IMG/VR virus record: IMGVR_UViG_3300047469_000197 | Coordinates: 1-64,000 of that record | Length of the DNA: 64,000 bases | Reading direction: 5' to 3' (one strand) | Source: a virus | Position numbers and translations under genes: made by a program | Shown: positions 38,832 through 44,102 of the stretch, in pieces | Layout: each line of letters opens with the position of its first letter | How positions within the stretch are numbered: position 1 is the stretch's first letter | The notes under the pieces: generated by a model | The model's input: the letters and a program-made list of their open reading frames with translations, nothing else | What the model was told of the DNA's origin: nothing | Databases searched by the model: none

Positions 38832-39044
38832 TCAGCTCTCCTTGTCGCTGGAATGATCGGTAATCTCTTGACCGTTTGCATCCACCAGCGAACGCCAGGG
38901 CTTCATGAGTACGCCATCAATAACCACGCATCCTTTAGCCTTGTATCGTGACAACAGCTGCGGCGTCATACTATTGGCCTGAGCCATTCGTGTTAGATTG
39001 CCACCAAAATACTGCGCTGCGATCTCGTCAATTGTCTTTGCCAT
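38832..39044 (-). CDS. Cro-like HTH protein at the cra position
   Basis: FGGNLTRMAQANSMTPQLLSRY; directly upstream of cre. Confidence 0.65.
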   Translation of the reverse strand: MAKTIDEIAAQYFGGNLTRMAQANSMTPQLLSRYKAKGCVVIDGVLMKPWRSLVDANGQEITDHSSDKES

Positions 39045-39065
39045 CCGGGCTATCCTCTTTATCCA

Positions 39066-39089
39066 AAACAGATAATGTTTTATCTGTTT
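39066..39089. promoter_or_regulatory. Inverted repeat, putative operator of the cra-cre promoter
   Basis: AAACAGATAA-TGTT-TTATCTGTTT. Confidence 0.55.
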
Positions 39090-39255
39090 CAGATAATATT
39101 AGAATTCCCATCGGTTTGTCACGGTAATTTTTTTGCACTATGGCATGCCGGAGCCATCACTAATCGGCGCAATAGATGGCATCTTGTTAAGTTTATCTTA
39201 ACAAAAGAAATGTAGTGCCGTGGTAAACATGCGTCAACTTTTAAAGGCGCATAAC

Positions 39256-39513
39256 ATGGTTCCCAAACGGCTAAAAGCAGCACGGATCGCAGCAGGATTA
39301 ACACAGGAAAAGCTTGGGGTAATGGCGGGGATTGAAGAAGCCTCAGCACGTGCTCGCATGTCATATTATGAATCCGGCACCTACCACCCCAATTTTGACA
39401 CCGCCTGTCGGATTGCGGCGATCCTCGATGTACCCGAATGTTACCTTTACGCGGTCGATGACGATTTCGCGGCCTTTATCCTCACATCCTACCACCAGCA
39501 AAAACACAGCTAA
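39256..39513 (+). CDS. XRE-family transcriptional regulator
   Basis: RLKAARIAAGLTQEKLGVMAGIEE...RMSYYESG..HP. Confidence 0.85.
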   Translation: MVPKRLKAARIAAGLTQEKLGVMAGIEEASARARMSYYESGTYHPNFDTACRIAAILDVPECYLYAVDDDFAAFILTSYHQQKHS

Positions 39514-39924
39514 GCCAGATTTGGCGGGGCTTAATCGCCAGTTCAGCAGAAAATGAGACGTTGCTACGTGAATTCTTTTTTGGCGCGTGGGTATCAGGTC
39601 GCCAGATTTTGCGTAGCGTTACCAGGTTATTAACATGACTGGTGGCCAAGCAAGACATTTCTGATTTACTGCAGCGGCCAAATGCATATGTGAAGCGCGC
39701 CGGGGTTAGCAATTATTTTCGGCGTAACAAATCCACATCCCACCGGCAGAATACATACACAGGCAATAGTGTTGCATAGCTAACGCGGCCAAAAATACTT
39801 AGTGGTCGAATCGTTTCAAAAACCTTACACATAGACCGAAAAGCCGTCGGCAGGTGCACGGCGCACTGGTTAGACCAATCAACATGAGAAAACTTCATTT
39901 TTTGAGTGGTATCAGCCTCCTAAG

Positions 39925-39958
39925 CCAAGATTACATATTGGATGTTATGTAATCTTGG
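39925..39958. other. lox-type recombination site
   Basis: CCAAGATTACATA-TTGGATGT-TATGTAATCTTGG: perfect 13-bp arms and an asymmetric 8-bp spacer, between cre and c1. Confidence 0.88.
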
Positions 39959-40183
39959 TTGCCGATCGTCGCATGGTAACGGTTTCATTTGGTGATTATT
40001 AGTTTCATCCCCCTTACGCTTCCCTTACCCGATTACAGGACAATTTTTACCCAACGCATAACTATTTCATTTAAACCGGACCTAATGTCCGGTAGTGCCG
40101 TGGTTAATCACTATTTGAAATGATATATAAGGCCATTCCGAAAAAGTGTTAAAAGTAACAATATAATTTGACGAGCTGACAAG

Positions 40184-40387
40184 ATGACGATCACGGCAAC
40201 ACTCCCCGTAATAGAAGATGTAAATTGCGCCATAACCAAACTTCACATTGATGTGTGCCGACCTGGTGCCGTCTCCATTCTTGTAAAACACTTCTCCATC
40301 GTGTGCGGGACTGTACGCATGTCCAGTGAAAACCGTCGTGCCTTTAGAAATGCGCTGAGAAAAGTCTGTAATAGTGCAATAAACTAA
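40184..40387 (+). CDS. coi: C1 inactivator Coi homolog
   Basis: 67 aa immediately upstream of c1; P.I.DV....L.(I/V)D...A...H(F/Y)S pattern as in P1 Coi. Confidence 0.6.
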   Translation: MTITATLPVIEDVNCAITKLHIDVCRPGAVSILVKHFSIVCGTVRMSSENRRAFRNALRKVCNSAIN

Positions 40388-40498
40388 TAAAAAATTGTCA
40401 GCTACTGTCCTTTTGGTCGATTTAACCCTGGAAATATACTAATTTACTCCTTAGTTTAAGGCGTGCACGTTGCGCGCCTTGCTTGGAGAGTAATCAGT

Positions 40499-41365
40499 AT
40501 GCATGACATCAGAAAGGCTGAGATCTTGTATCAGGAATTCATTGAATTCCGGGACGCGTTTCTTACTAAAGCCCTATTAGAATCCGCAGCACACAGCACA
40601 AACATGCACGGGCAGAAATTCCGCCCCGTGGTTCAGGTTCCTGAGCGTAAGGCAAATTACTGGCGCGAGCAGATCGCCAAGTGGAATGAGTACGCCGAAC
40701 AGCTACGCCAGTATCCTGAGCTAGGCATTGAGAAATCCCTTTATGAGCCAGCCCCGAAGTACATCGAGGGAGCTAACCGCGTTCGTGTAAACGTTGTCCC
40801 GGCCATCACTTCGAAGAAGATTAGCCGTGAGGACGTTATCGATAAGATCAAGTCCACGATCGAGCAGTTCAAGGGCACAGAAGATACTAAACAATTCATT
40901 CAGAGCCTTGAAACCCAGCTGGAATTACTCAGCAGCCTTCCGCCGAAAACAGCGCTGCGCTTGCGCCGTGGCGGGTATGAGGATTTGATCTGCACCTACA
41001 ACACAACGGTTGAAAAGAAACTCATGGAACGCGTCACCGCGAACGGCGTTTTCTTTGATGATCGCGTGCTGCGTTATGGCCTGAAGCTCGGCGAAAAGAG
41101 CGCGAACGGTCGCACCTCTATCTATGACAACGTGCAGCCTCTGCCTATCACCGTCTATAAAGATTCCAAAATCTACCTGATTTCGGATATCGAACGCGCT
41201 ACCGCTGAAGTCCGTAACCCGGAAGTGGCCAAGGCCCGCACCCGTGAGTCATGGAACCGCGCCAACAGCAAACGCCGCGCCGGTACGGAGAAGAAAGCCG
41301 CTGCCGTCAAAGGTGCTGGCAATGCCGCCGGTGAAGTGAATCCAGCTGGTGGAGACACAGAATAA
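40499..41365 (+). CDS. c1: Primary repressor C1
   Basis: E.LYQEF..FRD.FL.KA, RPVV, L.QYP.L.I.K and KIY...DIE; GGAG RBS. Confidence 0.9.
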   Translation: MHDIRKAEILYQEFIEFRDAFLTKALLESAAHSTNMHGQKFRPVVQVPERKANYWREQIAKWNEYAEQLRQYPELGIEKSLYEPAPKYIEGANRVRVNVVPAITSKKISREDVIDKIKSTIEQFKGTEDTKQFIQSLETQLELLSSLPPKTALRLRRGGYEDLICTYNTTVEKKLMERVTANGVFFDDRVLRYGLKLGEKSANGRTSIYDNVQPLPITVYKDSKIYLISDIERATAEVRNPEVAKARTRESWNRANSKRRAGTEKKAAAVKGAGNAAGEVNPAGGDTE

Positions 41366-41389: not shown

Positions 41390-42889
41390 TTAGTCCTTGA
41401 GCCAGTCCAGCGCCTCATTACGGCGGCTCTCATCGGCCCTGCTGATCACCTCGTTCGCCGGGATGTAATCTGCCAGTTGAGTAAAGCAGAAGGTATCCCA
41501 GTGATCGGGCGATTTCAGGTTAAGCTTCGCCCTCATCTGCTCTTTAGGCATGCACACCCATTGGCCTGCCTCATTGAGAAATACCGGGATTTTGCTCGCC
41601 TGGTCAGTGGTTTTCCCGCCCTTATCAAATTTCATACGGCCCTGTCGCACGGCGTTGGCCGCATAGACGTTTGCATATGCACGCTGGTTGATGAACCGCT
41701 TACGCAGCTCTTTGTTGTGAAGCGGGAAGCCCCATCGGATGCGCTGCGCAATCACGCCGTGCTTCTCTTCCAGTACGTCCGCCGTTGTGGCACCCACGCC
41801 ATCTCCATCGATAACAATCGTGATGTTCGGGTACACCTCCGGATCACATTCGCTGTAGATGTAGTCCGCGAAACGTGACGGGGTCACGGTGGATTCCATT
41901 TCCAGCACCTTAAATGGCACCACGCGCCGGTGTTTTCCGTAGCCACTGATGCGGAATATTGAGAGTACCGACTTATCGCGACCGTTACCCACGTCGCAGC
42001 ACGCCACCCAGCCCCAGCCCTTAGCCAGGTATACATTACGCCGCATTGCGCGATCGCAGTCGTCACGGCCCAGCAGGAAGCCGGATATGGAGGATGGGAA
42101 CTCACCGCGCACCTTGATGAGGTATTCCGGATTCTCCCGCCCGCCGTAGTCCACCAGCTTTTCCCGGATGAACTGCAGCGTAACCAGTGGCGACTCTTCG
42201 CTGTTGAGGCGGATCGCCCTATAGATGCCGTTCGGGTTCTCCGGAGTGACAGCCAGGCGGTGATGTGAGTCATAAAACTCCCCGCTGGTCCGCGTGGGCT
42301 GCGAGATGAGCAACAGGCGGTTATCTTCCTGCGTCAATGCGCCCTTGATGAAGCCAAACGCCTTATCTGATACGCCGGATGCCTCATCGATAATGTAAAG
42401 CAGGTGTTCGGCGTGTTCGCCGGCTAGCGCTTCTTCGTTACCCAAGCGGAAGCCTTTGGGCACCACTTCCCATGCACCCTTAGACTCGGTGGCGAAAAAC
42501 ATCATGTCCGTGAGCGTGAAGTACTGATTCAGCCACGGGAAGCGCTTAAGGCAGACTTTCCAGTTTTCACGGAGGTACTTGAATATCCCCGTCTTAACCT
42601 GCTGCAGCTTGTTCGCCACGATAATGACGCGGGCGCCGGGGAAGAACAGCATGTAGCAGAGAATCATGATTGAGGTCATATCTGACTTTCCGGTACCGTG
42701 TCCGGAGGCGACCGTGGTCTTACTGCCTCCTTCCTGTACGGCCTCAATAATCATTTCCTGCTGCCATGTCGGGATCTTGCCAAACATCACTTCTGCGGCG
42801 CTGATCCAGTCGTATCGGTACAACAGAACCAGCTCCTGCCAGCGCGGGTCATCTAATACCGAGCGCTTAGCCTTATTGCTGGTGGCCAT
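41390..42889 (-). CDS. pacB: Terminase large subunit PacB
   Basis: Walker A SGHGTGKS, Walker B IIDEA, nuclease DVGNG and SPD.WD. Confidence 0.95.
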
Positions 42890-44102
42890 CGTCTACATCT
42901 CCATACAGATGGTTGTTAATCTCTTCGTCCGGCTCTTCACCATCAGCAAAGTCCGGCATCAGGTTCAGGTCATTCAGTGAGCCGTCAGCGGACACGTCAC
43001 CCGCCCCCATGTCGTCCACAATCACGTTGACGGCTTCCCGCTTCTCGGCCAGCGTGATTTCTAACTCGGCCATACGTGTGGCGCGCTGCTCACGTGCGCG
43101 GCGATCCAGCTCTGCCAGGTCAACAGGCTGTGAGTTAATGTCTTCTCCTGCCCCTTCTTTCATCTCTGCGCGGGCCAACTCCAGCAGCAGAGAAGGAACT
43201 TTGAAGCCGTTCGCCTCGATGTAGATGGCTGTTTCCATGGCGGTCCACTTCTCTGCCTTGCGGCGTGCGTAAGCCTCCATCACACGCTCTGGCTCTGAGA
43301 GTTTGCGCAGGTGGAGCTGCTGTTCGCGTTGGTCTTTGGAATAGCTCTGGCGGAGTCCGGCCATGGTGCGGGCGGTATCGTTGATGCTGGCTGCGGCTGC
43401 AGCGAGAACGGAAACGGCTTTGTTGATGGTGGGCGGCTCATCCTCGCCGGGTACGTGTTCTTCCAGGTGGGCGAGCATTTCAGTAACCGCGCGCTCAAGG
43501 GCAAACTGATTAACGAGGGCGCTGCGTATCATTCTCGCCTCAATGTCATCGACACCGGCGCGGCTCATCAGCGCCTCGGCTTCCGCGAGATCGTTGTCGT
43601 CCGGGACGAGGGCACCAACCAACACCTGGCCGCCAGCTTTACTCTGATCACCGGCGCGCCCCGACTTGGTCTTTTTGCCGACAACATCCATCAATTGTCC
43701 CGTGAGCACACTCGCGGGCGTTTCAGCACCGGGGGCCGTGTCGCGTGCCTTGGCGGCGCGCACCTGCTCACTTAACGCATTGATTTTACTGGCGGTGGTT
43801 TCCCGCTCGCCCACTGAGGTTTGATCACGCTTGTGATCAGTTTTGCTTTTGCGATCAATTGATCGCGGAGGTGTTTTTGATCGCGAAACTGATCGCGGGG
43901 CTGTTTTGGAGGCAGATTTAGCTCCCACCTGACTGGTTCCCACGCCCAGGTTACGGCGGGCTGTGCCGTGATTTAAATCATATAAATCAGCATATTCCTT
44001 TATCGTAACGTCCTGCTTCTGCCTCATCTGGGCTAGGCGTTCTCTGTGTTCATTCCAGTCCGTTTTCACTTCGCGATCACCGTCTATTACTACGTTGATC
44101 AC
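42873..44102 (-). CDS. pacA: Terminase small subunit PacA
   Basis: N-terminal HTH ([18 protein letters not shown]), A.YIEA.G.KVP; overlaps pacB. Confidence 0.88.

Follow-up and report, generated by a model that had tools for sequence, protein, structure and literature searches.

A perfect 13-8-13 repeat as the probable target of a divergent, asparagine-bearing Cre-type recombinase in a P1-like phage genome

Organization of the locus

The window, a 64,000-nucleotide stretch of a 95,130-bp virus record, contains the gene of a Cre-type tyrosine recombinase, a 34-bp inverted repeat upstream of it and a group of terminase and immunity genes, in the order pacA, pacB, c1, the coi position, the repeat, the cra position and cre (Table 1). 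The annotated order in P7 is pacA, pacB, c1, coi, imcAB, lox, cra and cre; that in D6 is pacB, c1, rox and dre. The C1 homologue matches the NCBIfam model NF041318 (phage_rep_C1) at 4e-32, below the equivalog cut-off of that model. The 67-aa ORF at the coi position aligns by tblastx with two related loci (55% over 72 aa with L001, on a Pantoea plasmid, and 33% over 61 aa with L002). Neither this ORF nor the 70-aa ORF matched any family, and the latter gave no alignment to the Cra proteins of P1 and P7. The stop codon of the 70-aa ORF lies 2 nt before the ATG of cre; the two genes are therefore probably co-transcribed and translationally coupled. The helix-turn-helix (HTH) regulator is divergent from both.

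Table 1 Features of the locus in window coordinates
Feature	Position	Strand	Evidence
PacA-type terminase subunit	42873..44102	-	phrog_1711 (terminase), 6e-51; order as in P7 and D6
PacB-type large terminase	41390..42889	-	phrog_5902, 3e-126; phrog_2 (terminase large subunit), 1e-36
P1-type C1 repressor homologue	40463..41365	+	28% identity to P7 C1, E 2e-34; D6 C1, 4e-16
67-aa ORF at the P1 coi position, just upstream of c1 and on the same strand	40184..40387	+	conserved in relatives
Predicted lox-type recombination site	39925..39958	.	perfect unique repeat; sites in relatives; family weight matrix
Left arm of predicted site	39925..39937		part of lox-type site
Spacer of predicted site	39938..39945		part of lox-type site
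Right arm of predicted site	39946..39958		part of lox-type site
XRE-family helix-turn-helix regulator	39220..39513	+	HTH_3, 8.4e-09; PHROG repressor families; conserved in L001
17-4-17 palindrome	39059..39096	.	repeat finder; preceded by a -10-like element and followed by the 70-aa ORF's ribosome-binding site
70-aa ORF at the P1 cra position	38832..39044	-	tblastx conservation with Pantoea plasmid locus L001
Cre-type tyrosine recombinase, 343 aa	37798..38829	-	phmmer, BLASTP, residue map, structure model

Two further observations concern the DNA shared with the Pantoea plasmid. The arrangement of HTH regulator, 70-aa ORF and cre (window 38832-39513) recurs in NZ_CP034366.1 (L001 3259-5002). 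Upstream of the coi-position ORF and c1, a 26-bp element at 40119-40144 is 96% identical to the plasmid, the DNA around it being only about 67-77% identical; it may serve the immunity region as operator or promoter.

The record is a complete P1-like phage genome. The Pfam models for RepA (PF10134) and ParB_N (PF02195) found no match in the whole 95,130-bp record, and its replicon and partition system thus differ from what these models detect. A plasmid lifestyle is consequently suggested by analogy: the related Pantoea sp. and Citrobacter freundii records are circular plasmids of 96-99 kb that carry terminase genes. At the ends of the record is a perfect 127-bp inverted terminal repeat (window 1-127, record 95004-95130), and a gene for a Cin-like serine invertase is located at record 94506-94904, about 230 bp from the right end. 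The terminal repeats are probably not genome ends but the inverted repeats flanking an invertible tail-fibre segment, where the assembly broke.

The Cre-type recombinase

The 343-aa protein is a true Cre homologue. It matches Pfam Phage_integrase and a SAM-like N-terminal domain, and phmmer aligns almost the whole of it with PDB chains of Cre and Tre (E 7e-75 to 6e-71), residues 12-336 being covered in the match to Cre chains at E 7e-73. BLASTP against P1 Cre (record X03453) gave 38% identity over 330 aa (E 7e-82), or 38.5% over 95% of the length; in tblastn it shares 43% identity with phage D6 Dre and 38-39% with the Cre proteins of P1, P7 and their kin. Cre chains are the best structural matches of an AlphaFold model of the recombinase (mean pLDDT 78.5), at TM scores of 0.70-0.79, with XerA, the Tn1549 integrase and an integron integrase far behind. 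The homology is full length, comprising the N-terminal domain, the catalytic domain and the fold. R172, K200, H286, R289, W312 and Y321 align with Cre R173, K201, H289, R292, W315 and Y324, and these six catalytic residues are invariant in an alignment of 18 sequences. No other gene in the genome encodes a tyrosine recombinase (PF00589).

An earlier note, made from the DNA letters, had described this reading frame as a recombinase gene diverging from Cre that keeps R-K-HxxR-W-Y and has RISN in place of the usual RxxE. All of this is borne out: the frame lies on the minus strand, its product is 38.5% identical to P1 Cre, the six residues align with those of P1 Cre, and N175 falls at the position of Cre E176.

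The protein departs from Cre at DNA-contact positions, examples being K43T, K86S, R259N, E262K and E266R, and from its Pantoea relative in the stretch aligned to Cre 257-263 and at several other DNA-contact positions; residues 257-263 of Cre belong to helix J. The nearest proteins are one that is 94% identical (ENA) and the Enterobacter proteins WP_331407896.1 (Enterobacter soli) and HHA1396890.1, both 73% identical, followed by others at 61-64%. The recombinase itself was found only in JGI/IMG and Logan, the nearest NCBI protein being 73% identical. Scans of metagenomes and species genomes with the recombinase returned relatives of at most 59% identity and no close relative. A megablast search with the 2.8-kb region found no match in phages and otherwise hit only two Citrobacter plasmids, over 155 bp of cre.

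An asparagine in place of the conserved glutamate

A feature of the recombinase is the residue three positions after Arg I, where Cre has Glu176 in the motif RIAE and the window protein has N175 in RISN rather than Glu or Asp. Glu or Asp occupies this position in more than 95% of tyrosine recombinases, and in Cre the role of Glu176 is structural, in that it positions Arg173 and the loop bearing Lys201 (Gibb 2010, PMC2943603). When all 19 substitutions of Cre Glu176 were assayed, Asn and Thr were the strongest, with high activity in vitro, and Gln was inactive; the Flp mutant D194N is deficient in cleavage (PMC2943603).

The window protein shares Asn at the Glu/Asp-I position with its relatives of 94% and 73% identity, all of full length. 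In the 18-sequence alignment there is also a second Asn clade of full-length proteins, whose source names are Yersinia ruckeri, Plesiomonas and Xenorhabdus, and the clades between the two Asn groups, as well as Cre and Dre, carry Glu. Since the tree sets the two groups apart, the change from Glu to Asn happened at least twice. This natural double replacement matches the mutagenesis, in which E176N is among the best-tolerated changes of Cre. Because E176N is active in Cre and Asn recurs in two natural clades, the motif RISN, although uncommon, does not mark the enzyme as inactive; the residue is a structural one and not indispensable.

The 34-bp repeat upstream of cre

The repeat consists of two 13-nt arms that are 100% complementary and stand 8 nt apart. 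Direct reading and a repeat finder gave the same arms, which upholds the perfect 13-8-13 site of the earlier note. The 8-bp spacer is asymmetric and reads ACATCCAA in the sense of cre; being non-palindromic, it makes the site directional. No other perfect 13-8-13 repeat turned up when the entire record was scanned, and a pattern search permitting up to three mismatches showed this one to be single-copy in the genome. Simulated genomes (100 first-order Markov simulations) yielded 0 perfect 13-8-13 repeats and 0.05 with at most one mismatch. The repeat lies in non-coding DNA; a single ORF (39713-39898) touches this area, and relatives do not conserve it. It is located 1,096 bp upstream of the start of cre, with two genes between. 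The locus thus has the make-up of a lox-type site, with two 13-bp arms, an 8-bp asymmetric spacer and a recombinase gene nearby, in one copy per unit genome and between the c1 immunity region and cre. The same note had placed the repeat at the loxP position, which is true by gene order and not by distance, the site standing 1,096 bp from cre here and 420-422 bp from it in P1 and P7.

Sites in relatives and assignment of the cognate target

We scanned the loci of Cre homologues from plasmids, IMG/VR and species genomes for similar repeats. The scan correctly recovered the annotated loxP of P1 and P7 and rox of D6, and a 13-8-13 repeat with at most two asymmetries was present upstream of the recombinase gene in 26 of the loci examined, those of P1/P7 and D6 among them. 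The distance from site to gene is 117-290 bp in most relatives (270 bp in the Citrobacter relatives that are 53% identical) and 1,923 bp in Pantoea. Another group of Citrobacter-type relatives, 41% identical (L008-L013, L138, L144 and L160), had no 13-8-13 repeat with up to two mismatches within the 1.5-3.5 kb covered on each side; their target may be built differently or be more distant from the gene.

The closest relative with DNA for comparison, 62% identical in its recombinase, is on plasmid unnamed3 of Pantoea sp. CCBC3-3-1 (NZ_CP034366.1, L001). Its site is in register with that of the window in a weak DNA alignment, with the same genes on both sides. The spacers are identical at 8 of 8 positions, and the arms differ at positions 6, 7, 8 and 10, each changed in both arms, so that the palindrome is kept. 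This pattern of change, read from the two sequences, is that of a palindrome apparently bound by protein.

The window arm also agrees with the family at all strongly conserved positions (A3, A4, T7, A9, A11, T12 and A13; counts from 54 arms, positions 12-13 having been part of the selection filter), and its spacer starts with A, as family sites do. Its minority states within the family are C at arm position 10 and A at spacer position 8. A weight matrix was built from 20 distinct sites, chosen by position only, whose recombinases share under 50% identity with that of the window, and was run over the whole genome in 13-8-13 geometry with no requirement for a palindrome. Position 39925 ranked first of about 95,000 (score 16.5, z 5.1). 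The runner-up, which is non-palindromic, scored 14.4, and the matrix alone is thus not strongly discriminating. Protein and arm distances are correlated across the family (Mantel rho 0.29, a value reached by 49 of 3,000 permutations), a modest effect among sequences that are related to one another. Taken together, the shared gene order, the co-varying arms and the family core positions indicate that the repeat is very probably the cognate lox-type target of this recombinase in a probable P1-like phage-plasmid.

A second palindrome and the control of cre

Located nearer to cre, 232 bp upstream, the 17-4-17 palindrome also fits a 13-8-13 register if two mismatches are allowed. By hand count its arms match 0 of the 7 conserved family positions, and the weight matrix gives it a score of -5.7 (rank 182). 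A promoter-like -35/-10 site on the minus strand (39122-39093) directly precedes it. We regard this palindrome as a candidate operator for the divergent HTH regulator and not as a lox site; read in this way, it would make cre part of a repressor-controlled two-gene operon. Together, the divergent regulator, the 70-aa ORF probably coupled to cre and the palindrome over the promoter point to a small repressor/operator switch for cre. As a recombinase target, the 17-4-17 palindrome was rejected on its family core positions, its promoter context and the lack of such a repeat in Pantoea. A reading of the 34-bp repeat as a terminator or RNA element was likewise rejected, there being no T tail, no Rfam family and no terminator called.

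Alternative explanations

On one alternative view, the recombinase acts on the palindrome nearer to cre, and the 34-bp repeat is either a hairpin or terminator in RNA or an operator bound by C1, Coi or the HTH regulator. The distance of this palindrome from cre is the one typical of relatives, a search limited to 1 kb would pick it, and the 34-bp repeat, as RNA, folds into a stable hairpin. However, the hairpin is not followed by a run of T and belongs to no called terminator or Rfam family, the nearer palindrome fails on the family positions and in the matrix scan, and its place between a -10-like element and a ribosome-binding site is that of an operator. In addition, the Pantoea relative has no 13-8-13 repeat at the equivalent of 39059-39096 and has one at the place homologous to 39925. 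We therefore consider an exchange of roles between the two palindromes very unlikely. Less probable still is that the chief role of the enzyme is integration of the phage at a chromosomal site similar to the repeat. The enzyme is the sole tyrosine recombinase of the genome, and the Pfam models of RepA and ParB_N found nothing, as such a role would allow; yet the two closest relatives compared, from Pantoea sp. and Citrobacter freundii, are the circular 96-99 kb plasmids with terminase genes described above, the site has no match in 5,426 complete E. coli genomes, and a perfect simple palindrome with a Cre-type protein that has no arm-binding domain fits resolution and cyclisation.

Other doubts bear on activity and novelty. 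The module could be decayed or weak, either because losing the Glu/Asp-I residue, or other changes, impaired the recombinase, or because a host factor is needed. The rarity of tyrosine recombinases without Glu or Asp at this position and the cleavage defect of Flp D194N point that way, as does the outcome of Jelicic 2023 (PMC10250229), where roughly 500 pairs were predicted and only 8 of 17 predicted pairs worked. Against this stand the high in vitro activity of Cre E176N, the retention of Asn in the full-length 94% and 73% relatives and in a second full-length clade, the invariance of the other catalytic residues across the alignment, and the perfection of the palindrome, which decay would erode; decay is thus improbable in our view. 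There is a similarly small chance that the pair is real but its specificity, or a near-identical protein, is already among YR1-YR12/lox1-12 or the roughly 500 pairs of Jelicic 2023, which would touch novelty only and is compatible with the cognate assignment. In that paper, lox11 is given as having four mismatches from the rox half-site and seven from lox4, figures that fit the window arm (four from right rox and seven from loxP), and the site of the 53% Citrobacter relatives, 270 bp upstream, is within reach of its pipeline. However, that study mined NCBI nucleotide records, looking up to 1 kb from the gene in each direction. Among NCBI proteins, the closest to the window recombinase has 73% identity, and the sites of the window (1,096 bp) and of Pantoea (1,923 bp) lie beyond that range. 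Active sites are given there as having G/T-A-T/G-A next to the spacer, whereas the window site has C-A-T-A. The 34-mer had no full-length match among plasmids, phages, E. coli genomes and IMG/VR, and its arm was not found in the papers searched.

Proposed mechanism and implications

Binding, the positions of cleavage, activity, biological role and the co-expression of cre with the 70-aa ORF are what we infer for the system, and on this basis we propose the following scheme. By homology with Cre/loxP, one recombinase monomer would bind each 13-bp arm, and two sites would synapse as a tetramer. Y321 would cut within the 8-bp spacer, strand exchange would proceed through a Holliday junction, and the asymmetric spacer would give the site its direction. 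The reaction could serve to circularise terminally redundant phage DNA after injection and to resolve plasmid-prophage dimers before partition, and the divergent HTH regulator would control cre and the 70-aa ORF together. A more far-reaching possibility, which we put forward tentatively, is that the Asn-bearing recombinase is fully active on a target that no characterised recombinase uses, and that the placement of cre in a divergent repressor/operator module makes cyclisation and dimer resolution switched rather than constitutive.

To our knowledge, only about fifteen orthogonal Cre-type pairs have been characterised, and such pairs are wanted for multi-step genome engineering. The present pair is a clean candidate tool, with a perfect site, an intact enzyme and 4-8 arm mismatches from the published sites compared. 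If active and orthogonal, it would be usable at once as an orthogonal tool and would bear out, in nature, the Cre E176N result. The locus also bears on how such pairs are mined: the probable true site lies just outside the 1-kb range searched in Jelicic 2023, and a decoy palindrome, probably an operator, inside it. Mistakes of this sort may account for some of the predicted pairs, roughly 50%, that failed in that study. Both lessons, on search range and on Asn, are small, and neither changes the understanding of the family.

Comparison with known systems

The arms were compared with published sites, as the earlier note had proposed. Against database records, loxP differs at 7 of 13 positions per arm and 3 of 8 in the spacer, in agreement with the claim of that note that the arms are unlike those of loxP, and rox differs at five positions in the left arm, four in the right and 5 of 8 in the spacer. 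Hand counts from printed sequences gave, per 13-nt arm, 5 mismatches for pox, 7 for nox, 8 for vox, 7 for VloxP and 8 for SloxM1. The window arm is therefore unlike all seven sites (4-8 of 13 positions), and it is absent from the five candidate systems in the Karimova 2016 supplement. Searches of 72,556 plasmids, 50,697 phage records and 5,426 complete E. coli genomes gave no full-length match to the 34-mer, and in IMG/VR the arm pattern was found nowhere but in the window's own record. A 14-base pattern of the spacer and inner arm bases gave more than 118 unrelated matches in IMG/VR and no full site. A literature search returned neither the arm sequence nor papers on lox-type sites of P1-like phage-plasmids.

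The system resembles Cre/loxP of P1 and P7 in the length of the protein (343 aa), its fold and six catalytic residues, the 13-8-13 geometry, the ATA beside the spacer and the gene order pacA-pacB-c1-coi-lox-cra-cre. It differs in the distance of the site from cre (1,096 bp instead of 420 bp), in Asn for Glu176, in many DNA-contact residues, and in having an HTH gene and an unrelated 70-aa ORF in place of cra. By target, the nearest characterised relatives are Dre/rox of D6, with 4-5 arm mismatches, and Panto/pox, with 5. Like the window site, rox lies between c1 and the recombinase gene, and Dre is 43% identical to the window protein; the window arm differs from both rox arms at positions 2, 5, 6 and 10 and from the left one also at position 1, and Dre has Glu where the window protein has Asn. 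Jelicic 2023 (PMC10250229) reports that Dre tolerates up to four half-site mismatches from rox, so that cross-reaction of Dre on the window site is possible.

In the Pantoea plasmid unnamed3, as in the window, an HTH gene and a small ORF separate the site from cre, and the spacer is identical; the differences are four arm positions, one asymmetry of the arms, Glu instead of Asn, and a site 1,923 bp upstream. YR1-YR12/lox1-12 of Jelicic 2023 are similar in being Cre-type recombinases mined together with nearby 13-8-13 palindromes. On the sequence comparisons made here, in which lox1-12 are represented by their description in Jelicic 2023, the pair is probably an active and undescribed member of the Cre/lox family. 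It is an uncharacterised member of a well-known kind, that of Cre/lox, rather than a new kind of system.
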